Part shown: piece by piece, positions 1 to 17,182 of the stretch
Position numbering within the stretch: the first letter of the stretch is position 1
Layout of the letters: every line of letters starts with the position of its first letter
Source of the DNA: a virus
Lineage: Duplodnaviria > Heunggongvirae > Uroviricota > Caudoviricetes
Reading direction: 5' to 3' (one strand)
Length of the DNA: 19,280 bases
IMG/VR virus record: IMGVR_UViG_2711768037_000017
Location: 1 to 19,280 of that record
Program-made: the position numbers and the translations under genes
Notes under the pieces: model-generated
Database searches by the model: none
Told to the model about the DNA's origin: nothing
Seen by the model: only the letters and a program-made list of their open reading frames with translations

Positions 1-1158
1 ATGCTCACCGTTAAGCAAATTGAAGCAGCAAAGCCGAAAGAAAAACCATACCGCCTTCTCGATGGTAATGGCCTGTACCTTTATGTCCCTGTATCAGGGA
101 AAAAGGTATGGCAGCTTCGCTACAAGATTGACGGTAAGGAGAAAATCCTGACCGTCGGAAAATATCCGCTTATGACTTTGCAAGAGGCAAGGGATAAAGC
201 ATGGACTGCGAGGAAAGACATCTCGGTTGGCATCGATCCGGTAAAGGCGAAAAAGGCTTCGTCTAACAACAATTCCTTTAGCGCCATTTACAAGGAATGG
301 TACGAGCACAAGAAGCAAGTCTGGTCAGTAGGCTATGCAAATGAACTTGCAAAAATGTTTGATGACGACATTTTACCCATCATCGGCGGTCTTGAAATTC
401 AGGATATTGAGCCGATGCAACTACTGGAAGTAATCCGCAGATTTGAAGATCGCGGTGCAATGGAGCGAGCAAATAAAGCCCGCAGAAGATGCGGCGAGGT
501 TTTCCGTTACGCTATTGTCACTGGTAGGGCTAAATATAACCCGGCACCTGACCTTGCTGACGCCATGAAGGGATACCGCAAGAAGAACTTCCCATTTTTA
601 CCTGCCGACCAGATCCCGGCATTCAACAAAGCACTTGCAACATTTTCAGGAAGTATCGTATCGCTCATTGCGACCAAAGTTTTACGCTACACAGCCCTAA
701 GAACGAAAGAGCTTCGTTCCATGCAATGGAAGAACGTCGATTTTGAAAACAGGATTATCACTATCGACGCCAGTGTGATGAAGGGACGCAAGATTCATGT
801 TGTCCCGATGTCGGACCAGGTGGTTGAACTTCTCACTACGCTAAGCTCCATCACCAAACCAGTATCAGAGTTTGTTTTTGCCGGGCGCAACGATAAGAAG
901 AAGCCAATCTGCGAGAACGCGGTATTGCTTGTGATCAAACAAATCGGCTATGAGGGCCTGGAAAGCGGTCACGGATTCAGGCATGAATTCAGCACGATTA
1001 TGAACGAGCACGAATGGCCTGCTGACGCTATTGAAGTGCAACTGGCACATGCCAACGGCGGATCTGTGCGCGGGATTTACAACCATGCTCAGTATCTCGA
1101 TAAGCGCAGAGAAATGATGCAGTGGTGGGCGGACTGGCTTGATGAAAAGGTGGAGTGA
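1..1158 (+). CDS. int: Tyrosine site-specific integrase, IntS/P4 family (385 aa)
   Basis: Full-length ORF beginning at window position 1. N-terminus MLTVKQIEAAKPKEKPYRLLDGNGLYLYV is the characteristic start of argW-type prophage integrases (CPS-53 IntS, Shigella serotype-converting phages) as I recall them. The C-terminal catalytic region contains HGFRHEF and a downstream tyrosine (RGIYNHAQY). Confidence 0.93.
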   Translation: MLTVKQIEAAKPKEKPYRLLDGNGLYLYVPVSGKKVWQLRYKIDGKEKILTVGKYPLMTLQEARDKAWTARKDISVGIDPVKAKKASSNNNSFSAIYKEWYEHKKQVWSVGYANELAKMFDDDILPIIGGLEIQDIEPMQLLEVIRRFEDRGAMERANKARRRCGEVFRYAIVTGRAKYNPAPDLADAMKGYRKKNFPFLPADQIPAFNKALATFSGSIVSLIATKVLRYTALRTKELRSMQWKNVDFENRIITIDASVMKGRKIHVVPMSDQVVELLTTLSSITKPVSEFVFAGRNDKKKPICENAVLLVIKQIGYEGLESGHGFRHEFSTIMNEHEWPADAIEVQLAHANGGSVRGIYNHAQYLDKRREMMQWWADWLDEKVE

Positions 1159-1364
1159 TCCACATTAACCACTATCGGATAGTACAAAGCTTTGTGTGCC
1201 TCGTTCATGCCTCACATTACCTGGCAATCATCAAATTCACCAGAACGTTCATAAATCGTCTTTGTGATCTGCTTCACTGTTAGACGTAATACTTTTTGCA
1301 GTTATTTTATAATCATAGAAATGCTCATCATGAGCAGTGAGTTGGTGATCTGCGCTGGTAGCCC

Positions 1365-1373
1365 TGCTATAAT
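1365..1373 (+). promoter_or_regulatory. Candidate extended -10 promoter element (TGcTATAAT) for the acyltransferase gene
   Basis: TG-n-TATAAT at 1365-1373, about 20-30 nt upstream of the first ATG codons of the acyltransferase ORF (1392, 1404). No convincing -35 hexamer. Sequence pattern only. Confidence 0.3.
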
Positions 1374-1391
1374 CCTTTGAAATTTTATCTC

Positions 1392-1946
1392 ATGGTGTGC
1401 ATTATGATCTTTGAGGCGCAAAGTCTTTATTTATATTTTTTGTCTCTTTTAGCCGTTGTGTTATGTATTACACTATTGACACGATATAACTATTTTTCTC
1501 ACATCAACTTTGCAAGTAACAGGTATTTCTTTATAGACGGATTGCGTGGGATAGCTGCGTTCAGCGTTCTTATTAATCACGGCGCTCATACAATTATTAC
1601 CAATGGAGTTCAGCCCATATTTATAGACTTCACAAAATACTCCATCACAGGGAATATGGGTAGCTTCGGTGTACAGATTTTCTTTTGCATTACAGGATTT
1701 TTGTTCTTTGATAAATTAATAAAAGGAAATAATACATTTGACTGGAATAAATTTTATGTTGCTCGGATAAAAAGACTCGTTCCTCTATATATGCTTACTG
1801 CGCTTTTGGTGGCAATTTTAGCTATTATATTATCCGGCAGTTCAGCAAGGCTTAACTTTGTTGATTTTTCAAGCTTCCTAAATTTTTTTGGGTTTGGATT
1901 TTTGGGCACAGAAATCTTCATTGGCTCTTTTAACGCATCAGGATAA
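1392..1946 (+). CDS. Membrane O-acyltransferase (Acyl_transf_3/OafA-Oac-like), N-terminal portion, ended by an in-frame TAA; probable lysogenic-conversion gene, likely a pseudogene
   Basis: Translation contains the family motifs FIDGLRGIAAFSVLINH and RIKRLVPLY and is strongly hydrophobic. Very AT-rich relative to its neighbours. The ORF track starts at TTG 1377, which lies only 4 nt after the putative -10, so ATG 1392 or ATG 1404 is the more likely start. Stop TAA at 1944-1946 is in frame with the next ORF. Confidence 0.75.
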   Translation: MVCIMIFEAQSLYLYFLSLLAVVLCITLLTRYNYFSHINFASNRYFFIDGLRGIAAFSVLINHGAHTIITNGVQPIFIDFTKYSITGNMGSFGVQIFFCITGFLFFDKLIKGNNTFDWNKFYVARIKRLVPLYMLTALLVAILAIILSGSSARLNFVDFSSFLNFFGFGFLGTEIFIGSFNASG

Positions 1947-1952
1947 AATGCG

Positions 1953-2531
1953 GTGATATGGACTCTACCGTATGAATGGAGGTTTTATTTAATTTTCCCT
2001 CTATTATCGATTGCCATCGCAAGCAAGAGATATGGTATGTTTGCCATTTCCGCAGTAATGTTACTTGCGGCAAGAGACTTTATGACAGAATTTGTTTTGT
2101 GGCCATATTTTATAGTTGGCGCCTTAGGTGCATATATATTCAATAAATCTTATGTTAACATTGATGATAAATATTGGATATTCTCATTCATTTCTTTCAT
2201 AGCTATTTTTGTTATCTTCTGCTCTTCCGCAGACAGCTATGGACGAATCAGATTTGCATGCATTTCATTACTATTTATAATGGTACTTATAACTAAACCA
2301 AAAATATTTAAAATAAAATCATTAGTTTATTTAGGTGAGGCAAGTTATAGTCTTTATTTGCTGCATTTGCCTATCATGGCTATAGTAATGAGAACAATAA
2401 ATAATTTCTATAACCTATCGAGCATGTCTACTGTGAATTACACAATTTTGATAGCCTTTATTGCATCTCTGTGTAGCGTTATTTCCTGTATCTGTTTTAA
2501 GAATTTTGAGTGGAGATTCATTAAAAAGTAA
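1953..2531 (+). CDS. Membrane O-acyltransferase (Acyl_transf_3), C-terminal portion, in the same frame as the preceding ORF
   Basis: Same reading frame as 1392-1946 (1377 and 1953 are both divisible by 3). Translation carries the downstream family motifs WTLPYEWRFYLIFP (WSLxxE-type) and GEASYSLYLLHLP. ORF track start is GTG 1953. The two ORFs together are the length of a single acyltransferase. Confidence 0.75.
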   Translation: MIWTLPYEWRFYLIFPLLSIAIASKRYGMFAISAVMLLAARDFMTEFVLWPYFIVGALGAYIFNKSYVNIDDKYWIFSFISFIAIFVIFCSSADSYGRIRFACISLLFIMVLITKPKIFKIKSLVYLGEASYSLYLLHLPIMAIVMRTINNFYNLSSMSTVNYTILIAFIASLCSVISCICFKNFEWRFIKK

Positions 2532-2535
2532 CATT

Positions 2536-2553
2536 GCGGGGCGATGGCCCCGC
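2536..2553. terminator. Bidirectional intrinsic terminator between convergent acyltransferase and tailspike genes
   Basis: Perfect GC-rich inverted repeat GCGGGGC-gatg-GCCCCGC at 2536-2553. On the plus strand it is followed by ttgattt; on the minus strand by a U-rich tract a few nt away. It lies between the acyltransferase stop (2529-2531) and the tailspike stop (2564-2566). Confidence 0.6.
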
Positions 2554-2563
2554 TTGATTTCCG

Positions 2564-4762
2564 CTACGCTATATTAAGATTACCATATGTATTGTTTCCA
2601 AGACCATACCATGCCCAGTTTGTTCCTGATGCAGGAGTACCTGCATTGTGAATCATATCGCCTATATTTATCAGCACTTTCCCAGGGTATGTTGTAGTAG
2701 GAGCAGTGTCTATTCCAGCAGACACATCGGCAAAACGCCAACCACAGGAAACCATATCTGCGTTATCTCTAAATTTCTTAATTGAAAACGTGTATCTGTT
2801 TCCTCTATATATCATTCCAGCAAAACTAGGCCAGTCAATAAGTTGATTTACTGGTGAGTTTAAAGTGTTACTAAACTCATTATTTTCAATAACTGGTTCA
2901 TCGATACGCACACCCGAAGTTGATACTAGATATGTAGAATCAAAGTCGTTGTCAGAAATAATTGGAGCATAACCACCAATTTCACAACCTGTATTGCCAT
3001 GAACAAAATATGACTTATTCCCTCGGTATATAGATTTTCTCCATGTGGGCATTGTTACTTTTACGGCATCAGTTCTATCAAACTGGTTGTTTTCAATCAC
3101 AAGTCCATAACAATATGCAGACATCTGAGTTTCAGCATAATCATTTATGGCATAACCACCGCCTTTAAATGTATTTTTTGTTATTTTAATTCCATTGAAT
3201 GATGTTGAGTAGTCATTACTACCATTCCAGATAATTAGAATATGAGATGAAAATGTGCCATCCTCGTTCTGATCCCCAATGCTTATATTGCTATCAATAA
3301 CAACATTCTGCGCTGCAACACCGTTAGATTCACCTCCTATCTCAACGAATATTCCTTGTCCTGTTTTGATGTTATTCGATATAACTGCACCACCAGTCAC
3401 CCCCCAAGGAGTAATCCTAGACTGAATACTTATAGGGCTTATAAAGTGATTTCTTTCTGCAATTAAATATTTTGTTCTTGCTGAGCACGCAAAATCTTCA
3501 CCAAAAGTATGCCATTTTCTGCCTGTTCTGTACGTTTGGCAGTCAATCATCTTAGCAATTCCATTAAGATTTTTAGTGAAAAATGTATAATTTGTTACCA
3601 AATCAGTCCTTACATTGCTAAGAGTTATATCCTCATTTGGTATAGCACCGTCACCATCAGCATCTGCCATTACAAAGATTCTTGCAGCCAATACGTCAAT
3701 ATCATTAATAGATCCACTACTCCCCTCAAGTGCGAAACCAAACCAATTCTCTTGAGGGGTAAACGTGGTATCTGAAGGTCCAGTTGAAAAATTTGTGCAT
3801 GACTGGTTTAACTTTATACCATTAAATTTAAAGTTTTTGCAGTTGAATAAACCAAAGCAAACACGCTCAGCCTCACCATTTCCATCTGTATTTATATTTA
3901 CATCATTATCTGCGTAAACAAATAAATTATTTTTACCATTAATTACAATTGCTGTTTTACGTATAACACCTGCAGAGTCATGATATTGCTGGCTGATTTG
4001 GTAATTAAACTTTATCTCACCGGCGCTAAAACGTATTGCTCTAACACCACCAAATTTTGATATACAAGCGTTAACCGATGCCGTTGAATCATGCACTCCG
4101 TTAATATCATGTCCAGCCCAAACTGTATGTATGCCATCGAGCACACAATTCGAACGGATCCAGCAACCAGAGCCACCACCATCACTCTCACCAGTTCCCG
4201 CAAGGAAAGCAGCGAGCTCAGCATACGAACCATCCCACGGAACTGTGGGGCTAAATATGGTGATACCGTTGTGCTGAGATTTAGGCATGCTGGCATCCCA
4301 GTAAAACTGCCCGCCGCCAAAGTTGGTTCCTGGTACGTATCCAATTACATTTAATGTGTGATTCCCAGCAGGCTCGCTCATTAAGGTATGGATGTCAGGA
4401 ACATTCTCCATTCGCTGGCTAAACTGATCGGGATCATACTTCAGCACATTGGGAAAATAGAACTGCTGCGAACCATACGCATCATATACAGCCATGGAAT
4501 GGCCTTGCACAGTTACGAACTTGGCAATCTGTCCGTTATATACCGGATATCCGGCAGCGTTAATGATTATTGGTTGCGAAACAGGAACGTGAGAGCCGTC
4601 TTCGTTCTCTATATAAACCTGAATCTGGTTTTCTGAATTTACGGGGTCAGCGTCAATTTTACCGATATAAATTTTGCCATTGGCTACGGCTTTAAAAGAA
4701 CGAGCCATAGTGAAGAGTTGCGAAGGCATGCTTACCACAACATTTGCGGTGATATCTGACAT
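2564..4762 (-). CDS. Tailspike protein: P22-family N-terminal head-binding domain plus divergent C-terminal receptor-binding/depolymerase domain (733 aa)
   Basis: N-terminal ~115 aa ([42 protein letters not shown]...VLKYDPDQF) closely matches the head-binding domain of P22, Sf6 and HK620 tailspikes as I recall them. Start chosen at the internal Met (ATG at 4762-4760) with a GGAG Shine-Dalgarno 8 nt upstream. The 16-codon upstream extension in the ORF track is not present in homologues. The remaining ~620 aa is Gly/Asn/Ser-rich, consistent with a beta-helix receptor domain. Confidence 0.9.
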
Positions 4763-4883
4763 TTCATTGCTCCAGACGAATGATATGATGCAACCATGAT
4801 GTGATTGCATACCGAAATGGTACTATTGAGTATTTATCCAGTAGGTTACGATGCCATTCCACCCAACTGGTGAGGCATCAAGG
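4763..4883. promoter_or_regulatory. Divergent intergenic control region between tailspike and mnt (candidate Pmnt and Mnt operator)
   Basis: A 121-bp non-coding gap between two divergently oriented starts. Contains the inverted repeat ATGCAA-N11-TTGCAT (4788-4810) and AT-rich -10-like hexamers. By position it corresponds to the mnt/arc-ant control region of P22 immI. No operator could be identified with confidence. Confidence 0.35.
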
Positions 4884-5144
4884 ATGTACAGCAAATACGA
4901 CGAGGCGCAGTTTCACTTGAGACTTCCGCATGAACTCCACGCGAAAATTAAGCAGCGTGCGAAGATGAATAACAGGTCGCTGAACTCAGAGATAATTGCA
5001 GCGATTGAAGAATCATTGGCTAAACAAAGCTCTGCATCTGTTTACATTGACGATGCAGAGCGTATGGCAGAACAACAATCTGATATGGTTAAGAAAATTG
5101 TCTTTGATACGCTCAAAGAGCTATATAAAAAAGACAGCAGCTAA
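4884..5144 (+). CDS. mnt: Mnt-like ribbon-helix-helix (Arc/MetJ family) repressor (86 aa)
   Basis: C-terminal half DAERMAEQQSDMVKKIVFDTLKELYKK is nearly identical to the P22 Mnt tetramerisation region as I recall it (DAERLADEQSELVKKMVFDTLKDLYKK). The N-terminus has the RHH beta-strand/helix layout (QFHLRLPHELHAKIKQRAKMNNRSLNSEI). Start placed at internal ATG 4884 with a GAGG Shine-Dalgarno 8 nt upstream; the ORF track begins at 4851. Confidence 0.85.
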   Translation: MYSKYDEAQFHLRLPHELHAKIKQRAKMNNRSLNSEIIAAIEESLAKQSSASVYIDDAERMAEQQSDMVKKIVFDTLKELYKKDSS

Positions 5145-5164
5145 CCATCAGTTACGGAGGATTT

Positions 5165-5242
5165 ATGCAAAGAGATATGCTGAATATTGCGTTCTACATA
5201 TTTGGTTTTTGCACGTTCCTGGTGTTTGCGAAGCTATTCTGA
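5165..5242 (+). CDS. Hypothetical 25-aa hydrophobic peptide (MQRDMLNIAFYIFGFCTFLVFAKLF), possible small membrane protein or gene remnant
   Basis: ATG at 5165 is preceded by GGAGG (5156-5160) with 4-nt spacing, 21 nt after the mnt stop. The product is one predicted transmembrane helix. It overlaps the 3' end of the convergent gp16-like gene by 9 nt. Too short for the ORF track; entirely predictive. Confidence 0.2.
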   Translation: MQRDMLNIAFYIFGFCTFLVFAKLF

Positions 5243-7231
5243 CAACGCATCAGACTTGGCACCCTGAGTCAGGGCGTTAATGGCCTTTTGCGCCTGCTGC
5301 ATGGCTTTCTCAAACGCTGTTGATCCGCGTGGTGTGTTTGCCATTCGGAGCATTGCATTTCTGAATGGCTCGCTCTCATAGGCGCGAGTAAGAAGTCCGT
5401 AGCTTACCGCTGCGCCAGTTGTCGCCGGGTTCATTGCCGTCCCATACCCGATAATGAACGGGATGGTTTGCTGCCCTGTTGGTGTTGTTACTGCCGCTTT
5501 TGCAGCCTGCTGCGTGGATTGCAGGTAGTTTTTCAATCCTTTCAGATAAGCAGCGTCCTGCCCCTTAAATGTGATGCCAGTCTGGTTTTGCAGGATGTTA
5601 AGCTGTCGAAGGAACTGATCAGGGGAACCACCTGATTTCTCCATCGCTTTTCCAATGATGCCATTGCGCATTTGCGCCCTGCCAACACGACCAACTGAGT
5701 TATACAGCGTCTTAATTTCCGATTTGTTCTTGCTGAATAGCATGTTGTTGACAACTTCCGGCGTCAGGTCGCCTTTCATGAGAACATTCTTCAGCCTGGT
5801 ATTCTTTAGTTTCGCCGCTTCGTCAGCGTAGACGGCATTGGCCTGCTGATATTTACGGAGAGTATCGTTGCCAAGATTCTGACCAATGGCACCATTGATA
5901 TCGTCAGTCATTGCCTTGTAAACGCGCTGAATGGCAGCATCGGAACGGTTTGGTAACACTGGTCGCTCACCCTTCACGTCCATTCTGAACTGGCTGCGCA
6001 GGTCGCTTAATTGCTTCAAATCCAGAGTTACCGGACCATCAGGGCCAGCATTGCGAACAAGCTCATCACGATATGACTGAAGTTTTGAAATTGTCTCGTT
6101 ATCAGCTACCTTACCAAGCTTCTGCAGGTTAGATATTTCTGTATCAATCTGCTGAATTGCTCGCGCAGGCTGAATGTTTACTCCAGCCATAGCATTCTGA
6201 ACCTGCTCCAGTCGATTACCGGCGGCACGACGAATTCCTGATGTTTTCGCTTTAAGGCTGTCAATAACAACCGCTGGATCATACTCACCGAATTTATCAG
6301 CAAATCTCTGCACCAACTGGCTTCTCGCTTCCTGTTGCGTTGCTCTCATTCCGCTTGTGCCAGCTAGAGGGATATTTTCTGCTGTAGTCTGCGCCATTTT
6401 TCCGACGCGGGAAGTTGGTTGTAACAGGTCTGTGGTGTGCAGAGGAACTCCTTCACGCTCTGCAAATCTGATAGCCTGCTGAGCTTCTGGCGCGATAGCA
6501 CCACGAACGCCACGATAAGCAGCACCTAATCCACGTCCGGCAGCGTTAATAGCACCGCCAGCAAGTACACCAACGCCTAAATCGGTGGCGAGTGCTTCCG
6601 CATCATCTTTCGCACTATTTGCAGCAAGTGATCCAACTGCGTTTTCTGCTAGAAGGCGAGTTGCCCCCTGAGCAATTCGACCAGCAAGTGTTGGTGCCTG
6701 TGTTGCCGCTCTCTCAATGCCAGCAGGAGTGAGGTAAGGCAATGCCTCAGCAAATACCCTGCCCTCTGTAGTTTGTGGAGTCAGCGCGCCTTGCTGAAGG
6801 CCAAAGTCCTGCTCTAATCCCTGAGTTGTTACTCGTGGCGCTGGTTGATATGTCCCATCGCCAATTCCGAGTTTACCGCCAGCCCAAGCCGCCGCGCTTG
6901 TTACAGCATCTGCAACTGATGCAGGTATGTTTGCCACGTTCACGCCCGCCTGCACCAGTCCGCGACCAGTCTCTTTTACTGCTTCACCAAGATCAGACAT
7001 AAATCCACTTTGCTGTGGTTGTTGCTGTGCTACTGGTTGCTGTGTCTCCACTGGCTGCACAGATGGCAATGGATAGGCAGCATAGAAAGCTTGCTTAGCC
7101 TGCTCTGCATTTTCTCCGGCTTGCGGGGCAACGACTTCATTGAAGTATTGCTCCTGAGCCTGCGCTTTTTGTTCTGGTGCTAACGCCTGATACTGTGGAG
7201 AGGCGATAACATCTTTCCATGCTTTAGCCAT
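5234..7231 (-). CDS. Ejection (internal/injection) protein, P22 gp16-like (665 aa)
   Basis: Last gene of the late operon, in the gp16 position by synteny. Large Ala/Gln/Gly-rich protein. Its start overlaps the upstream gene's stop (TAATG at 7229-7233). Confidence 0.7.
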   Translation of the reverse strand: MAKAWKDVIASPQYQALAPEQKAQAQEQYFNEVVAPQAGENAEQAKQAFYAAYPLPSVQPVETQQPVAQQQPQQSGFMSDLGEAVKETGRGLVQAGVNVANIPASVADAVTSAAAWAGGKLGIGDGTYQPAPRVTTQGLEQDFGLQQGALTPQTTEGRVFAEALPYLTPAGIERAATQAPTLAGRIAQGATRLLAENAVGSLAANSAKDDAEALATDLGVGVLAGGAINAAGRGLGAAYRGVRGAIAPEAQQAIRFAEREGVPLHTTDLLQPTSRVGKMAQTTAENIPLAGTSGMRATQQEARSQLVQRFADKFGEYDPAVVIDSLKAKTSGIRRAAGNRLEQVQNAMAGVNIQPARAIQQIDTEISNLQKLGKVADNETISKLQSYRDELVRNAGPDGPVTLDLKQLSDLRSQFRMDVKGERPVLPNRSDAAIQRVYKAMTDDINGAIGQNLGNDTLRKYQQANAVYADEAAKLKNTRLKNVLMKGDLTPEVVNNMLFSKNKSEIKTLYNSVGRVGRAQMRNGIIGKAMEKSGGSPDQFLRQLNILQNQTGITFKGQDAAYLKGLKNYLQSTQQAAKAAVTTPTGQQTIPFIIGYGTAMNPATTGAAVSYGLLTRAYESEPFRNAMLRMANTPRGSTAFEKAMQQAQKAINALTQGAKSDALSE

Positions 7232-8619
7232 TAATCACCCCATAGTGAAGAAAAGTTACTGCTGGCTGCTGGCTGTGATACCTGTGCAGGTTGAGATTGC
7301 TGCCGCTGAGATTTACCAACATTAACGTTATATTGTTGGTTGTAATTGTTGGTGTATTCCTGAATCTCACGAATCGACTGCTGCATAGCCTCCGGGCTTG
7401 AATAGTCAACCTGCGGCATCCCCTGAAAATACATCTTCGCTTCTGCAACGGTGTTAATACCACTGGCACCCATGTCCCTTGCTGCTGCCACCCCCTGATT
7501 CTGCATTCTGCCCTGAATACGTTGTGCTGAGTTATATAACTGGCGCTGCTCTTTTCCTGTTAATCGGCTGCGAACATCAGCACCAATTGCCGGGTTACCT
7601 GCACCGCCTGTCATTCCTGTCATGAAATCGAGAGCAGAAGCGTCTGCATTTGCGATCGCGTCGATATCCTTCTTCATGGCATAGTTTTGTGCTGATGCAG
7701 ACGATGTTGCAGGCGCTGCGATTGAACTGGCAGGAACGCGAACCATATTCCCCTCGTTGTCGATGCCTTCGTAGAACGCATTAGCCCCAGCGCCGTGAAG
7801 TTTCCCGCCTACCGTTACAGTTCTGCCATCTGATAACTGAACTGTACGCTCATCATTACCAGCGGTTCCTCTTGTTGACGCTCTCTGCATTGCCAAATCC
7901 TGCCCGCGTCGCGCAGTAGAAGCAGATAAATCCTGACCGCGCATCGTGATGTTCTGACCTCGTGCTGTTAGCGCCTCTCCGGCCTGATTGCTGCGGATTG
8001 TCTCTGCCAGTCTGCCCCTGTCAATCTCACGACCAGCCATCTTGTCCTGAACATTGAAGTAATCAATCGGACCAAGAGCAGCCATTCCGAGGTGATCAAC
8101 AAACTCACCAAATCCTGAAGGATTCTGCTGATACATCTGAGCAACGTTGTTAGGGTCAACGCCGACGCGCGCCAGTTCCTTGGCGTTGTTTTGCAGCCAT
8201 GATTGCATTGCTTCTGGAGACGAGGCCGCAAGGCGTGCGCCAGCTGCTAAGGTGCCGATAGAATTACGCTGCTCTTCATCAATGAATCCCATGCCTTTAC
8301 GAACGGATTCAATCTGGTCTGGATATTGAGTAGCCAACTGACGCAAAGCACCGCGATCACCAGACGCATAAGCATTAGCGTATGCCTGCTGAAATTCTTT
8401 CTGCCGCTGAGCCTGCTTTTCCTGCTGAAACACCCCCGCAATACCTGAAAGGCCTTGCAAAGCAGTCAGCCCAACATTGTTAGCGCCTGAACGCTCAATA
8501 TCATTGTTCTGCCTGATAAGCTGAAGCGTATTGCCGATGTCATTTACGCTCGGAGCGTTTGAGTTGACGCCACCGATACCAGCCAACAATCCGCCGTTTG
8601 TTCCTTGCCAAGTAGCCAT
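7231..8619 (-). CDS. Ejection protein, P22 gp20-like (462 aa)
   Basis: Position and size match P22 gp20 (about 470 aa). Ala/Gln/Gly-rich, low-complexity composition typical of ejection proteins. Translationally coupled to the gp16-like gene. Confidence 0.75.
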
Positions 8620-8628
8620 GATTACCCC

Positions 8629-9321
8629 TTAAAACAACGAGCCAAGCAATCCGATACCAGCACCAATGCCAGCGCCCCAAGGCGTTGATGTTCCCAAAAG
8701 GCTGGCAAGACCTGCACCGGCAATCGCACCAGACGTGCCACCGCTAATTGCAGTCTGAAGACTTGATGGTTTATTGGCATTAGCAGCGGCAAGCGCTGCA
8801 CTTTGCTGTGCAATGCTGCTCATGTTGTTGGCGTATGTCTGCCCAGCGTTTGCCTGACCTTGCAGCGCACCAAGCCCAACGTTTGCCAGATTATTGTAAT
8901 TGCTCATCTGGTTTGATAACCACGACTGACCGAGAGTCGGAGCAATCGTAGCCAGTTGATTGCTTGTAGCTGTCGAACCAAGTCCGCCAGTCGCCTCCGC
9001 AGCAGCAAGACTCTGGTAACGAGCCTGACCTGCAAGGTCTTTATACTGCTGAGAGTTGTAATACTGATTAAGTGCCTGCCCCTGACCTTCTAAACTGGAA
9101 AGGTTCTGAAGCTGGTTAACATACTGCTCCGCAAGAGGCGTGAACGGAGCAAGGTTTTTCATGATCGTCTGCCACTGCTGATTTTGCAGGTCTGCTGCAT
9201 ACTTCTGAGCTTCTGCGGCATACTTTGCGCTTTTATCAGAACTGCCACCTTTCCCGCCTTTTTCAGGGCAATAAGGTTCCTCGCCGCGCAGTTTTCTGCC
9301 CAGCTTAAATGCATATAACAT
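8629..9321 (-). CDS. Ejection protein, P22 gp7-like (230 aa)
   Basis: Position and size match P22 gp7 (about 229 aa). N-terminus MLYAFKLGRKLRGEEPYCPEKGGKGG followed by an Ala/Gln-rich body and a Gly-rich hydrophobic C-terminus. Confidence 0.75.
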   Translation of the reverse strand: MLYAFKLGRKLRGEEPYCPEKGGKGGSSDKSAKYAAEAQKYAADLQNQQWQTIMKNLAPFTPLAEQYVNQLQNLSSLEGQGQALNQYYNSQQYKDLAGQARYQSLAAAEATGGLGSTATSNQLATIAPTLGQSWLSNQMSNYNNLANVGLGALQGQANAGQTYANNMSSIAQQSAALAAANANKPSSLQTAISGGTSGAIAGAGLASLLGTSTPWGAGIGAGIGLLGSLF

Positions 9322-9323
9322 GG

Positions 9324-9779
9324 CTATCTCCCGTGATTCAGGAATTCGATTAGTTCTTCGCGTGTAGCACTGTAAAATGTCACGTCATCCACGCCTTTGA
9401 AGTATTTCTTGATGGTTCCTACACGCTTAAGGCCAATCATTGCGCAGTAAATCTGCCCGTGGCGGAATTTGCGTGCGGCGAACGATGTGACGCACTGAAC
9501 GGTGGTGTTAGTCAGAATGTATCGCCAGAACGCCAGCCCGATTTCCTTGCTGAAGCCGCGAATCTCTGGCAGGTACATGGCGTGGCAATCGAATGTCAGC
9601 GGCTGAATCTCCTGATAGTAAACAATGCCGCCGAACTGCCCGTGCACGTTCACCTCAAAGTAACGGCATTCAGGTTTGTAGTCGTATCCATCACCGTTGT
9701 TGCTTCCGGCAATAATGTCAGGGTGATTTCCGACTGCTTCGATCAGGTCGATATTTCGCGTTGGTTTGAACTGAATCAT
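9324..9779 (-). CDS. Virion protein in the P22 gp14 position (151 aa)
   Basis: Assigned by synteny between the tail needle and the gp7-like gene. No motif recognised. Tightly packed against both neighbours. Confidence 0.6.
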   Translation of the reverse strand: MIQFKPTRNIDLIEAVGNHPDIIAGSNNGDGYDYKPECRYFEVNVHGQFGGIVYYQEIQPLTFDCHAMYLPEIRGFSKEIGLAFWRYILTNTTVQCVTSFAARKFRHGQIYCAMIGLKRVGTIKKYFKGVDDVTFYSATREELIEFLNHGR

Positions 9780-10627
9780 TACTGCTCCGCAATGATTTTG
9801 ATGGTTGTGGCAGTAAACGCCGCACCATTAGACTGAATGGTTAACGTGCTGCCATTTGTGGCAAGAAAGCCGTCTTTATCCACGCTGAAGAACGTAGCTA
9901 ACAGGATGTTATCGGTTGTTGTAGCAGAGTTGCGACTGCTGACCAACGTGTCAGGAACAGAGCCGGAAAAGGTTAGCTGCATTGACCTGTTGGCGGTTCC
10001 GCTGGGCCACGTGCCGACAATCGACAGCTTGAAGAACAGCGTTTTGTTCTCGTTGAACACAACCATCTTGTTGTTAACGGTGTCGAAGAATGGTGCCAAC
10101 GTTCCGGATGACGGCGTGAGCGTTTTCAGCAGGCTAACAAGGTTGGTCGGCGCTGTCGGGATGGTTACAGATACGCCAGAGTAAACAACCTCTGACTTCT
10201 TGCGAGTAGTGGCATACTCCAGAGCATCGATGCGCGTTTCATGGTCTGAAACCTGCGATTCCAGCGACTGAACTCTGGTATCAAGCGACGCAATATCGCT
10301 TTCATTCTGAGCTATTCGTGTTTCATGTTCCTGAAGAGTTGATTCTGCCTGGCTGATTCGCTCCTCATGATTAACAAGCGTTGCTTCCGCAGCAGAAATT
10401 CGCTGCTCATGGTCAGCGAGAATCACATCCTGCTCATCGTTCCTGACCTGTGCATCATAAGCGCCCTGTCCGGCCTCGTTGGCCTTGTTAGCCACATTAC
10501 CAACATCAGTACCCTGTGCAATAACGTACAGCAGATATGACTGCGAGAAGATATTACGCGGAAGGACTGATGTGTCGAGCCGTGTAGCCTGAATGATTAC
10601 CGGCACATTGAGATTCGAATCCGCCAT
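9779..10627 (-). CDS. Tail needle protein (P22 gp26 / Sf6 gp9 type) with C-terminal knob domain (282 aa)
   Basis: N-terminus [43 protein letters not shown] matches the conserved gp26 N-terminal domain as I recall it. The central region is a heptad-like coiled-coil repeat (HEQRIS, HEERIS, HETRIA, DTRVQS, HETRID). A ~130-aa Ser/Thr-rich C-terminal extension resembles the knob of Sf6-type needles rather than the short P22 tip. Confidence 0.85.
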
Positions 10628-12045
10628 TACTCAATCCTTATCTGAGCGCCAGACAGAGTGACTGGTGACTTCGTGATAACGCGCAATTTGAAGCCGACAT
10701 TTTTCCTGATGCGCCCGACTCGCTTCCACAAAACACGTTTGTCGTAAACGAACGGTTCATTCTGTTCAATCATCTGCTCACGTCCGTAATTTATGCCGTC
10801 AGTGGTTGCAGAGAGAAAAAGGCGGTCCGCGTACTGAGCAACACCCGTCGATGATTCCACCTCCAGATCAAAACATCTGGCGTTCTCAGCTTTGAAGAGG
10901 GGTGTAAACAACAGGTGTTCTTGCTGTAGCCCATACTGGCAGCTGATGTCGAACTGCAATTTCCCGGTCACGGACTCCAGCTTATCGCCGCACGTTATCT
11001 GATTGCCTTCGTAAATGAAGTCGATAGCGCGGTACACATCATCATACAGTCCTGTTTTCAGCACACACCATTGCGGACCATTGGCGCTTGAAGATGCATC
11101 GTACACGAGGACGTGACGCGGAAGATGGATAATCAGCAACTCATGAGCATCAAACCGCAACGATTCCATCACGCCATCAGCCAGTTCATCAGCAGTGTAG
11201 GAGCGGAGGATTTTCTCAATGCTCGCACTGGCGATTGATGACACCTGACCGGAGCCGATGATGTACACAGACGGCGCACCTGTTGCCGGATTGCTGATGA
11301 ACGCATATGAATCAGAGAATGGCGTTTTGCAGTAAGTCCCGGCAATGCCTTTCTGCACCATCAGCGATGGCTGGGCGACATACAAAGCAGCACCAACTGT
11401 GGTTGCACCAGTCAGGGAGAAATATTCAATCGTCGATGAACCAAAGCAGACGATGAAGTCTCGCCATGTGCCGATACCGATGATGCCGTCCGGCTGCGAT
11501 TCTGCGCGATATTGTGCGCTGTAACGGTCAGGATGCGATTCGTCTTCAAGGTCAGTGATAAACCATGAATCAGTTCCGTCTTTTGACCACGCATAACGCC
11601 CGCGTAAGCGCGTAATGTCACGAACAGAACCTAACTCATACTGCGTGAATCCGCTGTCTGTAGGCCAGTTTGAGACGGTTTTAACCGTGCCATCATAGCG
11701 GTATTCGACCAGTTTCCCGTTAACGCCTACCGCCTGTGATGTCCGACCATGCGCCATTGATACACGACCACTTCCGGCGACGTCACCGACTTCGCTTTCG
11801 CCTTTGTAGAGCTTGCCGCCACACACGCGATAAACAGCACTCTGCGCCATGTTGTACTCGACGCCTCGAGATACACCGTTCACATCAGAACGTTTGGCAA
11901 TGCCCGGGAATGAGCGAAGATATCCGCTGCTGTTCAGGATTTCTTTGGGTGTAGCCAACATATTCACTGGCAGATAGTCGATATAGTCGGCGTTTCGAAA
12001 GTCTTTGCCGACACCTTTCATAAGCGGAAGTTGCTGAATCGGCAT
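10627..12045 (-). CDS. Tail accessory (tail hub) protein, P22 gp10-like (472 aa)
   Basis: Same length as P22 gp10, and the N-terminus [49 protein letters not shown] matches my recollection of gp10. Position follows gp4 as in P22. Confidence 0.85.
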
Positions 12046-12054
12046 TTATTCACC

Positions 12055-12516
12055 TCACGTACTCGGATCATCTTTCTCGATGTAAAACCGATTCCACGTA
12101 AACGCGCTTTTGTTACCACTACCGCGAGGCATGTCATTTCGCCGCTCAAGTGGTGGTATTTTGGTTAAAGCGATACAGATTGTCTGATATGCACTGTCAG
12201 CAGCGGTAAGGAGAGCGTCTGACGGCTGAATGACGTTATCCATGCACACTTGCACAGCGAGTTTCAACGCGACGCCATCATTTGCCCATGCAGGGATACC
12301 TGAATCATCGTCAGGTAACGGCATGATGCCGTTTTCTGTATCAGCAAACTGATACCCAAGCTCGATACCTTTAGCCTGCCATGCTGCCATCATGTCTTCG
12401 AGGTCATTAATGGCATCTTCAATTGCCTGAGGGTCAGCATCTGTCAACGTGGCATTGGAATACAGCCCGGCTTTTCGTAAAGCCTTTAGAACGAGATCAC
12501 CCTTCGTTTTCGCCAT
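12055..12516 (-). CDS. Head-to-tail adaptor protein, P22 gp4-like (153 aa)
   Basis: N-terminus MAKTKGDLVLKALRKAGLYSNATLTDADPQAIEDAINDLEDMMAAW resembles P22 gp4 (KTKGDLV...ATLTD...DLEAMMAEW as recalled). ATG at 12516-12514 has an AAGG/GGAAG Shine-Dalgarno upstream. Confidence 0.85.
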   Translation of the reverse strand: MAKTKGDLVLKALRKAGLYSNATLTDADPQAIEDAINDLEDMMAAWQAKGIELGYQFADTENGIMPLPDDDSGIPAWANDGVALKLAVQVCMDNVIQPSDALLTAADSAYQTICIALTKIPPLERRNDMPRGSGNKSAFTWNRFYIEKDDPST

Positions 12517-12685
12517 CTTCTTCCGCCTTAGCCACTTTTTGCTTCGTTGCGGTTTCTTCAGGAGTTTTTACCCAACCTTTTTTCAGGTGAGATTTAACTT
12601 CTTCGTCATCAACAATGATGTAATCGACAGCAAACTGACCACAGGTGATCATGTTGCCAGGCTTATAGAGCATTGTTCGTGCCAT
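12497..12685 (-). CDS. Small hypothetical protein between coat and gp4 (62 aa, acidic C-terminus)
   Basis: Start moved to internal ATG 12685-12683, which has a GGAG Shine-Dalgarno 6 nt upstream. The longer ORF-track start at 12724 would lie inside the post-coat terminator hairpin. Product MARTMLYKPGNMITCGQFAVDYIIVDDEEV...EEDGENEG. Overlaps the gp4 start by 20 nt. Confidence 0.5.
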   Translation of the reverse strand: MARTMLYKPGNMITCGQFAVDYIIVDDEEVKSHLKKGWVKTPEETATKQKVAKAEEDGENEG

Positions 12686-12693
12686 TGTCTTCT

Positions 12694-12720
12694 CCCAATA
12701 AAAATGGGGCCGAAGCCCCA
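12694..12720 (-). terminator. Intrinsic terminator/attenuator directly downstream of the coat gene
   Basis: On the minus strand: UGGGGC-UUCG-GCCCCA (6-bp GC-rich stem, UUCG tetraloop) followed by UUUUUAUUGGG, lying 6 nt after the coat stop codon (12727-12729) and just before the Shine-Dalgarno of the next gene. Probably partial, since essential genes follow. Confidence 0.55.
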
Positions 12721-12726
12721 CCAAAA

Positions 12727-13980
12727 TTACTGCCCGGCAATAACGATGCCCGTATATTCAGGAACAAGTACAGAGCAACCGTACAGAGTGGTGAAACGAG
12801 CAGTGGTTACGCCTTTGATGTGGTCGAAGGCGTAAGACATGATCAGCGTAGCGCCCTGCTCGGTGGTTGCTGTCATTACCTGTGGACCCTGACCAGTCGG
12901 GAACGCCAGTTTGCCGTACATCAGCTCAACAGAACCATCAGCCCAGAACAGGTTAGCCGGTGCGGCATTTTTGTTGAGAATGGTAATTGCTGCACCATTT
13001 GCCGCGTTAGCATCAACGTTTGCATATGGTCGGCTGGCGACATCAGCGTTATCAGGCGGCAGAATTTTCGGGGAGATAGTTACTGTCGTTCCGCTTACTG
13101 CCAGAACGCGGAATACCTGCGGCTGCCCGGTGGTATCTTTGGTGATTTGGTGTACGGAATTCACGCCAGCAATGGTGAACGCATCGCCAACCTGCAAACC
13201 AGATGCAGATACCGTAATGGTCCCCTGTCGGTTATCCACTGGCATATCGTTGGCATCTTTCGCTTCAACCTTGTGCGCAGGTTCAGCCGCCAGCGTCAGG
13301 GAAGTTGCTGTACCCTTCGGAACACGACCAGAAATATCGGTCTTGTAGCTATCGAAGGACGCAACCGGAGGGATCTGCGCTTTTTCGTATGCTGTCAGGG
13401 TTGCACCCTGAGCATAGGCACGGTGACCAAGCTCGCCAGCAAGGTCTTTGTAGTTGAAGGGGTTCCAGAAAGAGTGACGGTTGATACCCTGAGGTACACC
13501 AATCGCCGTCATGGTGGCATCAATACCTGCCGCACAGTTCCACAAATCACGGCCCTGTGTTCCTGTGGTTGAGTCAGCCATCGTGATCACGTTAGTAGCA
13601 CGCTGCGTGACCATGGAAATCAGGTCAGAGTCAATCTGTGCAGCAAGGCGCATACCTGCAGCGCGACCAGCTTCAGTTTTATGTTCCGGGTCACGCATTT
13701 CACGCGCATCCAGAGTGTACAGTATGTTTTTCGGCTCCTTGAACACAGAAGGAACAAGGCGCTGAACCAGTGCTGTTGGCGTTTTGCCGCTGAGGTCTAG
13801 GCCTTCCTCAATGTTCATGTGGTAATGCTGCGGACGATACAGAACATCACCTGCTCGCTGCATTGCTGTATCACCGGGACGGAATTTTTTAGCGTTACGG
13901 GAAACTACGCAGGCGGCCTCAAAGCCTTCAACGTAGTTTTCGAACATGATTTCAAGGTCTTTTGCTAATTGGTTAGCCAT
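12727..13980 (-). CDS. Major capsid (coat) protein, P22 gp5 type (417 aa)
   Basis: Position after the scaffold gene and a size near P22/Sf6 coat proteins. Local similarity to P22 coat as recalled (NLFWADGS vs NVFWADDA; RPYANVDAN vs RAYANVNTS). Confidence 0.88.
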   Translation of the reverse strand: MANQLAKDLEIMFENYVEGFEAACVVSRNAKKFRPGDTAMQRAGDVLYRPQHYHMNIEEGLDLSGKTPTALVQRLVPSVFKEPKNILYTLDAREMRDPEHKTEAGRAAGMRLAAQIDSDLISMVTQRATNVITMADSTTGTQGRDLWNCAAGIDATMTAIGVPQGINRHSFWNPFNYKDLAGELGHRAYAQGATLTAYEKAQIPPVASFDSYKTDISGRVPKGTATSLTLAAEPAHKVEAKDANDMPVDNRQGTITVSASGLQVGDAFTIAGVNSVHQITKDTTGQPQVFRVLAVSGTTVTISPKILPPDNADVASRPYANVDANAANGAAITILNKNAAPANLFWADGSVELMYGKLAFPTGQGPQVMTATTEQGATLIMSYAFDHIKGVTTARFTTLYGCSVLVPEYTGIVIAGQ

Positions 13981-13998
13981 GCTTAATGCTCCGATAGG

Positions 13999-14892
13999 TT
14001 ATTTTTTTGCCTTTTTAGCGGCGAAATACGGCGTCCAGTCACCAGTTTCCAGCGCCTTGGCTTTCAGTTTGTCGAGGTTATTGATTACTGCGCCGTTGCT
14101 CCCCTTAACTGTCGGGGTTGTGGCTGCCGTGGTTTTTGCTTTTGGCATGATTCTGGCCTTCGATTCGATACGTTCCAGCAGACGACCAATTGCTACGGGG
14201 TTGGTAGCTTCTGCCAGTTGCTTGCGCAGTTCAGCGTTGCGACCGAGCGCCAGAACAACGATTTCCGGCTTCTCTGACTCAAACAGGATCGCGTTTTGTG
14301 TCTCGATGGGGATTTCCTCGAGTACGGCCTGTTCTGCTTCCTGATAGCCAGGAACCTTGAGAGCCTTAACACGTTGCTGATATTTGGATAATCGCTCTTG
14401 ATAAGCAGCCTGAAGCTCCTGCTCCTTCTGCTTGCGAGCCATCTCCTGTTGCTGGTATTTGCCGTTATCCTCTGCCCACTTAGCCATGCGTTGCTGGTAG
14501 ATTTCTTCATCGAAACCGATGTCCTCATCATCCAGTTTTGGCATTCGCGGTGGTTGAGTGATTACCGGCTGCTGCTCGACGGGTTTCTGAGACTGACGCA
14601 TCAGCTCTTTCAGCTCACGGTCTTTCTCTTTAATCGTCTTGCGCAGGTGTTTTACCAGTCCATGCTCTGCGCCATCTTCGCTGGTTGGCGAATCCAGCTT
14701 TTCGTCACCAAAGTAGAATTCCTGTTCTGATTCGTCGTCATCAGTTTCAGTAGCTTCCTCTGCATCATTGCCGGAGGACTCACTGCCATCTTCTGTTTCG
14801 ACTTCTTCAGCCAGTTCGACATCATCAGGAATCTGCTCTGACGCGTCGGTTTCGATTTCAACTTCTGGTGTGTTTTCTGCCATCTGGTCCAT
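13999..14892 (-). CDS. Scaffolding protein, P22 gp8-like (297 aa)
   Basis: Located between portal and coat. Highly acidic N-terminus, Glu/Gln/Lys-rich helical middle and a basic helix-turn-helix-like C-terminus (…LDKLKAKALETGDWTPYFAAKKAKK), the architecture of P22 scaffold. Size matches (P22 gp8 about 303 aa). Confidence 0.8.
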   Translation of the reverse strand: MDQMAENTPEVEIETDASEQIPDDVELAEEVETEDGSESSGNDAEEATETDDDESEQEFYFGDEKLDSPTSEDGAEHGLVKHLRKTIKEKDRELKELMRQSQKPVEQQPVITQPPRMPKLDDEDIGFDEEIYQQRMAKWAEDNGKYQQQEMARKQKEQELQAAYQERLSKYQQRVKALKVPGYQEAEQAVLEEIPIETQNAILFESEKPEIVVLALGRNAELRKQLAEATNPVAIGRLLERIESKARIMPKAKTTAATTPTVKGSNGAVINNLDKLKAKALETGDWTPYFAAKKAKK

Positions 14893-14982
14893 TTGTTACC
14901 CCTGTTTACTCGATGTTCAGCCCATCGGAAGGCAATAGGGTGCCAGGCCTCATAAAGACAGCCATTGCACGTTATGGGTTAA

Positions 14983-17181
14983 TTACTGCTGTGGTTGTTG
15001 CTGAGTTGATTTTTGCAGGATGCTGCTGATGTCCATGCGCTGCGCATGGCCCTGTGCCTGACTTTTCAGGACAAGCTCTGCATCAGCACGGGCATTGTCT
15101 CCTTGCTGTTGCTGGAACTGTCCGAGCAGTTTCAGAGCCTCGCGGATATCAGATTTCTGCTGGCTATCAGCAGATGCGAGGATTTTCACAACGTTTGCCG
15201 CTGCAACCTGAGCATCAGTCTGTGCCTGGAATGCTTTAACCTGAATGGCTGCCTGCTCGTTCTGCGCTTTCTGCAATTCAGCCTGACCAGCAAGAAGCTG
15301 ACCTTGCGCAGCAACCATAGCCGGATCTGGCTGACTGGCCTGTTGTTGTTTCGCCTGCTCAACCATCTGCTGTTCTTCTGGCGTTCTCGGCTTGATAACT
15401 CCAGACAGAAGCAACTGATTGCGGTTGTATTCTTTCAGGTCGTCCATCCCTTCGCCGTCCATATTGTCGAGAATCATCGACGATACAAGGTCGTGCTTCG
15501 GCGTTCCTGGTGGGATAAGTGCCAGCATGGAAAGTAACGACTTAACCGTTGCATCACGGCGAGTAGCGAACGACTGACCGACATCGACAGTCACTTCATA
15601 GTTACCCTGCGAAAGGTCGTTAAGCGCGATAACCTGCCCTGTCTGACGGTCAACCACTTCACCAGTCATCAGCGCCACGTCATCGCTGCCGTCCTCATTA
15701 ACGATACGCATCGGCGTATCGCTGCCATAGACTTCACGCGCCATAGAAAGCCACACAACGCCAGCGCGACGCATGGATTTAGCCATGTTGTCCATGTAGA
15801 TATATGACTGCGTGTCCATCCTGTTAAAGATGCTATCAACGGTATCGGTAGCGACGTTGCTCGGCATGTTCTCAAGCTGCGACGCACCTGTAATTTGCTG
15901 AATAGCCGTTCCGGTGTACTGTAATAGCCCGGCAAGAGCAGGAGGCATTTGTGTCGGAGGCGTATAACTGCTGACCTGAGCCTGCGCTGTAATATCTCCG
16001 TTTTTGTTTTTCAGACTGACCATCGGCAGGAACGCCGGGCGCTTTTTGTTTCGCTCCGCCCAATGAGTGGCGAGAGTACCAGGAATCATGTCAACATCAA
16101 CTACAGGAATGCCATCACCGCCAGCCTGAGTAGCGTTATCTGCAATCATGGAAACCATCAGGTTCTCAAGACGCTGCGCATCCATCGCTTTTGCTGCGTG
16201 GCCTTCGATTCGCTCCTGATTATCAACAAATGAGCGACGCCCATATACCGGGATGAGAGGAATATGTTCGCCAGGAATACGCTTCGGCTCTTCCAGCCAT
16301 TCAGCGCCAGACAGAAGACCGCAATAAACTCTGCGTTTCTTCACTGTCCGCTCACCGATCAGTTCGAATGCACCATCGGTTAGCTCGTCGACAATATCTT
16401 TGATTTGCTCTTCATCATAGATTGCCGTTTCTCCGCTAACAGGGTTGCGCCACGCCGTGAGCTTCACCTTCTCTATGCGAACTTCGTAGTAGCGACCAAC
16501 ATAGATAGCATCAGGCGTTGACCAGTCATATTGAGTGCCAGTGTCATCACGAGAAAGGCTTGCCGCGATGGAATCAGGGTATTCAGCCTCGAACGCTTTG
16601 GGCGTCATGGAGAACATTTCCATAGCCCACATAGCATCAGAGCGGTCATATTGCTTGCTGTCCTGATCGAAGAAGACGCATGTCGCTGGGTCGTAAACAG
16701 GAAGAAGGCTGATGCGTCGCTGCTCGTTACTCGGATCCATTTCATCTTCGTAATCGGCACACATGCGGAAACAACCGAATCCTCCCGTTACAGCATCATC
16801 AAATGCGTTATCACACGCTTCGCCACCGGATGTTTCCTGATAGTCAGCGCGGAATTTGCCGTTCATCTTTTCGGCTAACGCTTCCGATGCCTTATCGTCC
16901 TTCGGCCTGAATTTAACGCTTATGCGATTCTGTCGATACTCGCCAATGATGCGATCACATTCACGGGCAATCTTATTCAGTTCAAAGCGCGGATAATGCT
17001 CAAACCTGCCTTCATCAAATGAGTAACCAGCGTTTGTGCTGCCTTCCCACTGTGCGCCGGATACCCGGACGAAACGTTGAGCCTCAATAATCTGCTCACG
17101 CATATCCTGCGTTGCTGACCAGGCATTATCAAAGTTGCACAGCACCTTGCGATGCCAGTCAGTCATCTTTTTTTCTGCCAT
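14983..17181 (-). CDS. Portal protein, P22 gp1 type, with long C-terminal helical barrel region (732 aa)
   Basis: Segments match P22 portal as recalled: RRRVY, GEHIPLIPVYG (P22 GEHIPIVPVFG), PRTPEEQQMVEQAKQQ, DPAMVAAQGQLLAGQAELQKAQNEQ. The Gln/Ala-rich C-terminal ~120 aa is typical of P22-like portals. Confidence 0.93.
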   Translation of the reverse strand: MAEKKMTDWHRKVLCNFDNAWSATQDMREQIIEAQRFVRVSGAQWEGSTNAGYSFDEGRFEHYPRFELNKIARECDRIIGEYRQNRISVKFRPKDDKASEALAEKMNGKFRADYQETSGGEACDNAFDDAVTGGFGCFRMCADYEDEMDPSNEQRRISLLPVYDPATCVFFDQDSKQYDRSDAMWAMEMFSMTPKAFEAEYPDSIAASLSRDDTGTQYDWSTPDAIYVGRYYEVRIEKVKLTAWRNPVSGETAIYDEEQIKDIVDELTDGAFELIGERTVKKRRVYCGLLSGAEWLEEPKRIPGEHIPLIPVYGRRSFVDNQERIEGHAAKAMDAQRLENLMVSMIADNATQAGGDGIPVVDVDMIPGTLATHWAERNKKRPAFLPMVSLKNKNGDITAQAQVSSYTPPTQMPPALAGLLQYTGTAIQQITGASQLENMPSNVATDTVDSIFNRMDTQSYIYMDNMAKSMRRAGVVWLSMAREVYGSDTPMRIVNEDGSDDVALMTGEVVDRQTGQVIALNDLSQGNYEVTVDVGQSFATRRDATVKSLLSMLALIPPGTPKHDLVSSMILDNMDGEGMDDLKEYNRNQLLLSGVIKPRTPEEQQMVEQAKQQQASQPDPAMVAAQGQLLAGQAELQKAQNEQAAIQVKAFQAQTDAQVAAANVVKILASADSQQKSDIREALKLLGQFQQQQGDNARADAELVLKSQAQGHAQRMDISSILQKSTQQQPQQ

Positions 17182-17182
17182 A

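Follow-up and report, generated by a model that had tools for sequence, protein, structure and literature searches.

A probable recent ochre mutation in the Oac-type acyltransferase gene of an Sf6/P22-like argW prophage of Escherichia coli

The stretch of DNA considered here (hereafter the window) comprises the 19,280 nucleotides of the IMG/VR virus record IMGVR_UViG_2711768037_000017, assigned to the Caudoviricetes, and is 100% identical to contig CXWY01000050.1 of the Escherichia coli draft assembly GCA_001269305.1. Between the genes for a prophage integrase and a tailspike it carries a gene for a membrane O-acyltransferase of the AT3 family (Pfam Acyl_transf_3, PF01757) whose reading frame is broken once, by TAA. 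We consider it likely that this is the Oac-type conversion gene of an Sf6/P22-like argW prophage and that it has been inactivated by a recent ochre mutation. A single base distinguishes the broken gene from the intact one in E. coli W.

One frame, one lesion

In translation, 1377-2531 on the plus strand is a single reading frame whose sole internal stop is the TAA at 1944-1946, and a list of its open reading frames (ORFs) has it as two, 1377..1946 and 1953..2531, in the same frame. Across the break the translation runs ...FNASG(stop)NAVIWTLPYEW.... When compared with the Pfam Acyl_transf_3 profile (length 326, cut-off 31 bits), the N-terminal half matches profile positions 3-119 (E 3e-17, 62.9 bits) and the C-terminal half positions 125-320 (E 1.5e-13, 50.9 bits), so that each passes alone; with the stop bridged there is a single match, over the nearly full-length 3-320, with E 9e-33 and 114.2 bits. 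The two ORFs therefore encode successive portions of a single domain and are not neighbours by chance. From the family norm of an uninterrupted single polypeptide the window allele departs at codon 181.

The initial annotation, made from the sequence, had described two adjacent ORFs in one frame, ending at 1946 and starting at 1953, which together carry the ordered motifs of the family and are separated by no lesion other than the TAA, with no frameshifts. The ORF list and translation bear this out, all of the motifs are present in order (IDGLRG...H, RIKRLVP, WTLPYEW, FYL, SYSLYLLHLP) and the lesion amounts to one substitution with respect to E. coli W. Its placing of the gene start can be refined: the ATG at 1392 is that of the original 379-amino-acid annotation in W (ADT75968.1), and the RefSeq start is the ATG at 1404, giving 375 amino acids, which is the numbering used here.

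What the stop replaced

The reference for base-by-base comparison was the argW prophage of E. coli W (NC_017664.1), which has the same integration site beside yfdC. Over a block of 4,081 bp (1165-5245) base 1945 of the window, which is CXWY01000050.1:179479, alone differs, being A in the window and T in W; within 1200-2760 it is likewise the one difference. Codon 181, TTA (Leu) in W, has thereby become TAA by a T-to-A transversion. The gene in W (ECW_m2538, ADT75968.1; WP_000575660.1) is otherwise the same gene, and DNA identity extends over its promoter region, the terminator, the tailspike gene and the arc-like gene. Outside the block, both in the integrase gene to the left and in the ejection-protein genes to the right of 5246, the window diverges from W by ~2-10%. 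An identical 4-kb block between otherwise diverged prophages means that the acyltransferase/tailspike block was exchanged very recently and that the stop arose afterwards.

Five complete E. coli genomes have the region at 99.9%, namely two assemblies of E. coli W, B-766 and two labelled DH5alpha. The two annotations read, those of W NC_017664.1 and B-766, both have the intact 375-amino-acid 'acyltransferase family protein' WP_000575660.1. Our searches found no experimental characterisation of the E. coli W acyltransferase, a protein that is annotated only.

How rare is the broken state? Occurrences were counted in a collection of ~15 billion catalogued proteins. The intact 375-amino-acid protein occurs on 165 contigs and, called from the longer start (379 amino acids), on 37 more; the 180-amino-acid N-terminal product is on one, CXWY01000050.1 only. 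Next to the identical 732-amino-acid tailspike, which has index entries in 269 blocks of the collection, the intact 375-amino-acid gene is present on every one of the 24 longest contigs, these being the ones read. The 192-amino-acid C-terminal product is also recorded in the Logan assembly SRR22106267 (L005). As a second witness for the TAA this assembly was ruled out: its codon 181 is TTA, and its frame is broken elsewhere, by a T7-to-T6 deletion at the equivalent of window 1877-1883, after which the shifted frame stops at almost the position of the window's TAA. The missing T, in a copy that sits in an E. coli W-type prophage, could reflect either a homopolymer read error or a separate knockout. 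The ochre event is recent and confined to this isolate.

Homologues of the enzyme tell what the position ordinarily holds. In an alignment of 38 of them, at 30-89% identity, Leu occupies position 181 in 34 and the remaining four have Val, Ile or Met, so that the residue is aliphatic in all 38; the aligned homologues are 359-397 amino acids long. The codon is TTA in the 89%-identical homologue of locus L019 and TTG in the 70%-identical one of L022, and Sf6 Oac has Ile. Among the best 120 homologues listed, one has 260 amino acids and the other 119 are single chains of 350-463 amino acids; no naturally split homologue, with two adjacent ORFs broken alike, is among them. On these sequences the ancestral codon 181 is one for Leu, and the family is not normally split.

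The enzyme and its family

By analogy with characterised relatives the gene is an AT3-only membrane O-acyltransferase of the Oac type, a lysogenic-conversion gene whose product most likely acetylates O-antigen. PF01757 is the sole Pfam domain of the 375-amino-acid protein, which has no SGNH domain, and there is a match to PHROG 3333 'O-acetyltransferase' (E 8e-44). The best match among sequenced phages is OacB of Shigella phage Sf101, with 27% identity over 99% of the length, and identity to Sf6 Oac is 22% (pairwise E 4e-9). The R/K-X10-H pair is there as R48 and H59, invariant in an alignment of 58 homologues, as are the FFxISG-type motif (FFCITG, 93-98) and RxxR (RIKR, 121-124), of which F93, F94, T97, R121 and R124 are invariant. 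Mutagenesis has found R-X10-H (R14 and H25 of OafA, in transmembrane helix (TMH) 1), the FFxISG-type motif (TMH2) and RxxR (before TMH3) to be essential in OafA and Oac (PMC7448272).

Three characterised systems are instructive, each with its own distance. Sf101 OacB is likewise an AT3-only serotype-converting O-acetyltransferase, distant in sequence, and the antigen targeted in the present case is possibly O6. Sf6 Oac (OacA), from a Shigella flexneri phage, is an AT3-only O-antigen O-acetyltransferase with which R-X10-H, the FFxISG-type motif, RxxR and WTLP(L/Y)E are held in common, but it has 333 amino acids, lacks an N-terminal helix that is present in the window protein, and goes with another tailspike and another O-antigen target. 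Salmonella OafA and OafB have an AT3 domain whose essential residues, TMH1 Arg/His and RxxR, are the same; in them this domain is followed by an 11th helix and a periplasmic SGNH domain for the final transfer, whereas the window protein is AT3-only.

Other searches were less rewarding. NCBIfam had no matching family, and a PDB sequence search with a 38-sequence profile gave no match. Foldseek against PDB gave nothing significant, the only meaningful weak matches being to human HGSNAT (probability ~0.7, template modelling score 0.35), which are consistent with the proposed TmAT superfamily; neither PDB search found a solved AT3 structure for comparison. Megablast of 1200-2760 against sequenced phages gave no match; the gene is known from prophages only. 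The intact enzyme is an uncharacterised member of its family.

Predicted effect of the stop

The intact allele was modelled with AlphaFold2 (mean predicted local distance difference test score 90.6, predicted template modelling score 0.91), the query being a 377-amino-acid cluster representative that differs from the E. coli W protein only at the last residues. The model has ten core helices and, between the third of them and the fourth, a re-entrant loop, in agreement with the AT3 fold described in PMC9833829. Its extra N-terminal helix, absent from Sf6 Oac, would put the N-terminus across the membrane from that of other AT3-only enzymes.

Codon 181 falls, in the model, where TMH4 begins, and the invariant W186-T-L-x-x-E191 follows five residues further on. 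The 180-amino-acid product keeps the acyl-donor motifs R-X10-H, FFxITG and RxxR, and is without seven of the ten core helices and without S314, Y315 and H321; because of what is missing, loss of function is expected. A natural precedent is provided by Salmonella oafA, in which every isolate with a premature stop (codon 136, 378 or 602), a 7-nt deletion or an IS4 insertion was O:5-negative; such loss-of-function alleles arise repeatedly in natural isolates and abolish O:5 acetylation (PMC9426603). These are the same kind of event as the window's stop, and, to go by motif spacing, oafA codon 136 is probably the counterpart of W186.

What the intact enzyme would do can be sketched as follows. By means of the Arg-X10-His pair of TMH1 and RxxR it would pick up an acyl group, most likely acetyl supplied by cytoplasmic acetyl-CoA, and pass it by way of a transmembrane pore to be placed on the host O-antigen, the glycan recognised by the phage's own tailspike. 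The modification would change the serotype and hinder adsorption of the same phage and of phages sharing its receptor-binding domain. With Leu181 changed from TTA to TAA, translation would end after TMH3 and the re-entrant loop, the 180-amino-acid product would be inactive and the O-antigen of the lysogen would no longer be acylated, the tailspike and other structural genes being left intact.

Other explanations for the TAA

Is the base real? A sequencing or assembly error, with the isolate truly having TTA and a working enzyme, is less likely than a true mutation. The TAA allele is on a single contig in the whole collection, searching for exact copies of the window's gp16 turned up no second, independent assembly of the isolate, the literature yielded no mention of the assembly or of its contig accession, and the only other source of the 192-amino-acid fragment carries a different lesion. 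The substitution, on the other hand, is outside any homopolymer and so is not an error of the usual kind, the 4 kb around it agrees with E. coli W at all other bases, and no other gene is broken in the 19-kb window or in 8 kb of host flank. The host flank as such is uninformative on per-base accuracy, its best match to any complete E. coli genome being 99.6%. In short-read assemblies consensus substitution errors are far rarer than true pseudogenes among accessory genes, which, if this assembly is of that type, counts against error.

Could the enzyme be made in two pieces? Termination at the TAA would be followed by restart at GTG 1953, and the 180- and 192-amino-acid fragments would assemble into an active acyltransferase, or one of altered specificity, so that acylation was kept or reduced. 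We regard this as very improbable, though there is something to be said for it. The in-frame GTG lies 6 nt past the stop and has AGGA 9 nt upstream, whose duplex with the 3' end of 16S rRNA has an energy of -4.1 kcal/mol, a stronger pairing than that ahead of the native start; automated gene calling yields both ORFs; and in the model the break comes between structural elements, after the re-entrant loop and at a helix start. Some polytopic membrane proteins do function as two expressed halves. Against this, GTG is a weak start with out-of-frame ATGs competing at 1948 and 1958, and the break costs the protein its conserved Leu181, together with the opening residues of the helix bearing the invariant WTLxxE. 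None of the best 120 homologues listed is split, and the presence of the TAA allele on one contig gives no sign of its maintenance. The codon-136 nonsense allele of oafA, equivalent on motif spacing to W186, gives an O:5-negative phenotype (PMC9426603). Were the enzyme made in two pieces, it would be the first natural two-chain AT3 acyltransferase and the TMH3-4 loop a permissive split site.

That read-through, whether through an ochre suppressor tRNA or through leaky termination, yields enough full-length enzyme is scarcely credible: the frame continues perfectly past the stop and there is no supporting evidence beyond that, the window has no tRNA gene, no recoding signal is evident around 1944-1946, and of the three stop codons UAA leaks least in E. 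coli.

An inactivated conversion gene thus seems to us the likely explanation, and several considerations weigh against it. The TAA base is supported by one assembly only; the GTG and AGGA at the stop mean that the C-terminal part might be made; with identity to the characterised Oac and OacB at only 22-27%, it is from the family that we infer O-antigen acetylation by the enzyme; and a loss of O-antigen acylation presumes that the host isolate makes O-antigen, and of a fitting O-type.

A cassette shared with the tailspike

The acyltransferase gene does not travel alone. A mobile cassette of 3.1 kb, with GC content of 32-39% as against 45-55% in the flanks, includes the promoter region, the gene, the terminator and the receptor-binding part of the tailspike, and its boundary is the junction of the head-binding domain and the receptor-binding part. 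Its counterpart at L019 belongs to another phage backbone, which has holin and GH19 lysis genes alongside and lacks a P22 head-binding domain. There the nearest homologue of the enzyme (P0016, 89% identical) is convergent to an 811-amino-acid tail protein that is 96% identical to residues 118-732 of the window tailspike and is fused to a non-P22 N-terminal anchor. Beside a more distant homologue (P0021, 70% identical) lies a P22-type tailspike of 63% identity. Divergence of the acyltransferase accordingly tracks that of the receptor-binding part (89% with 96%, 70% with 63%), and the block moves between backbones. Conversely the window's backbone, identified by an identical 665-amino-acid gp16, elsewhere (L008, L009 and L011, around 8484-13082) has a 622-amino-acid tailspike together with gtrA, gtrB and Glucos_trans_II.

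Pairs of tailspike and modification genes are therefore swapped across backbones, O-antigen-modifying genes and receptor-binding domains being exchanged together, as is to be expected if the enzyme modifies the glycan that the tailspike recognises. Modification of the tailspike's glycan has been shown for Sf6 Oac and BTP1 GtrC (OafB), and acetylation by Oac blocks the Sf6 tailspike and so prevents superinfection. The gtrABC modules of P22-like prophages occupy the same slot between int and tailspike and have the same receptor-modifying role; theirs is glucosylation by way of three proteins, in contrast to acylation by a single AT3 protein.

As to which antigen is involved, the receptor-binding part has 33-42% identity to tail fibres of lytic siphophages, one of them a Citrobacter phage, the values being 33-39% for 536P11 and for phages with CFT073 or ATCC 25922 as host; the strains CFT073, ATCC 25922 and 536 are O6. 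E. coli W is O6 (PMC3032704). By analogy with the serotype of W and the hosts of the related tail-fibre phages, the target may be the O6 antigen. The tail-fibre similarity also hints at O6-directed specificity across phage types.

What the loss would mean

Given a true mutation at base 1945, an acyl decoration of the O-antigen has probably been lost in the lysogen. Its serological fine type could then change, and its own phage, as well as phages sharing the receptor-binding domain, could become able to adsorb. Comparable changes recur, with oafA in Salmonella and with oac in Shigella, and the present case is the ordinary pseudogenisation of a known type of gene, with little significance beyond this isolate. 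More may be gained from the intact enzyme, which is tightly linked to one receptor-binding domain in a pair found in E. coli W (O6) and a few hundred assemblies. With a 3.1-kb cassette that moves between unrelated backbones, the intact and TAA alleles form a clean natural pair bearing on the enzyme's effect on the O-antigen.

The prophage locus

The features of the locus and of the modelled protein are collected in Table 1. The gene has the location typical of the Oac type, between the integrase and a convergent tailspike from which a terminator hairpin (2536-2553) separates it, its promoter being a candidate read from the sequence. Gene order is identical to that of Sf6 (IntS, promoter, oac, terminator, convergent tailspike), and IntS is 99% identical. 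In the source contig as in E. coli W, IntS adjoins the host genes yfdC and mlaA, and the W record has an annotated tRNA-Arg gene between yfdC and intS. The DNA of the tailspike gene is identical to that of the W gene encoding WP_001280400.1. After the arc/mnt-like gene come P22-type ejection, tail and head genes.

Two further claims of the initial annotation can be taken up at this point. That the product is a lysogenic-conversion O-acyltransferase is upheld by the AT3-only architecture, the slot beside IntS and tailspike, PHROG 3333 and the 27% identity to Sf101 OacB; and the matching tailspike is, as it had stated, intact, with 732 amino acids and DNA the same as in E. coli W.

Table 1. Features of the acyltransferase locus (window coordinates) and elements of the modelled protein (residue numbers)
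Feature	Position	Strand	Basis
Prophage integrase IntS, 385 amino acids, argW-specific type	1..1158	+	381/384 identical to Sf6 IntS
Block identical to E. coli W argW prophage except base 1945; acyltransferase, terminator, tailspike, arc-like gene	1165..5245	.	Mismatch list against NC_017664.1
Low-GC mobile cassette: promoter region, AT3 gene, terminator, tailspike receptor-binding part	1253..4342	.	94% DNA identity to L019 4850-7939
Candidate extended -10 element TGcTATAAT	1365..1373	+	Read from sequence; 19-31 nt upstream of the two candidate starts
AT3-family (PF01757) O-acyltransferase gene, probable pseudogene here; 375 codons if intact	1404..2531	+	Pfam with stop bridged; E. coli W coding sequence WP_000575660.1 at same coordinates
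N-terminal fragment ORF, 180 amino acids: extra N-terminal helix, TMH1-3, re-entrant loop; R48-X10-H59, F93-F94-C-I-T-G98, R121-x-x-R124	1404..1946	+	Translation, model
Possible restart site: Shine-Dalgarno-like AGGA (1940-1943), 9-nt spacer containing the stop, in-frame GTG 1953-1955	1940..1955	+	Sequence
Premature ochre stop TAA, codon 181	1944..1946	+	Single mismatch to E. coli W
C-terminal fragment ORF, 192 amino acids: TMH4-10; invariant W186, E191, Y195, S314, Y315, H321	1953..2531	+	Pfam, alignment, model (helices 179 to 374)
GC-rich hairpin, 7-bp all-GC stem, bidirectional terminator candidate	2536..2553	.	Found on both strands; Sf6 terminator at same place
Intact tailspike, 732 amino acids: P22-type head-binding domain and beta-helix receptor-binding part	2564..4762	-	Pfam Head_binding, Phage_tail_beta
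Arc/Mnt-like small DNA-binding protein, 86 amino acids	4884..5144	+	Pfam Arc, Repressor_Mnt; Arc-like PHROG families
gp16, 665 amino acids	5234-7231		Exact look-up
Model: extra N-terminal helix	residues 5-27 (window 1416-1484)	+	AlphaFold2
Model: AT3 TMH1-3	residues 42-61, 81-107, 114-147	+	AlphaFold2
Model: short re-entrant helix	residues 152-162	+	AlphaFold2
Model: loop	residues 163-178	+	AlphaFold2
Model: TMH4	residues 179-206	+	AlphaFold2
Model: six further helices	up to residue 374	+	AlphaFold2

Expression in the lysogen would likely be from the TGcTATAAT element, by analogy with the annotated oac promoter of Sf6. A consensus promoter scan did not report this element because its -35 is weak. 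The one match that the scan gave near the start, at 1377-1405, overlaps the start codon and was rejected as the promoter of the gene.

Further afield, the head and packaging module of E. coli W is different from that of the window, the two being without a blastn match to each other: window 12052-19030 (coat, scaffold, portal and terminase) has no blastn match to the W argW prophage, as against 97.6% for 1-12051, and the prophage is a mosaic.

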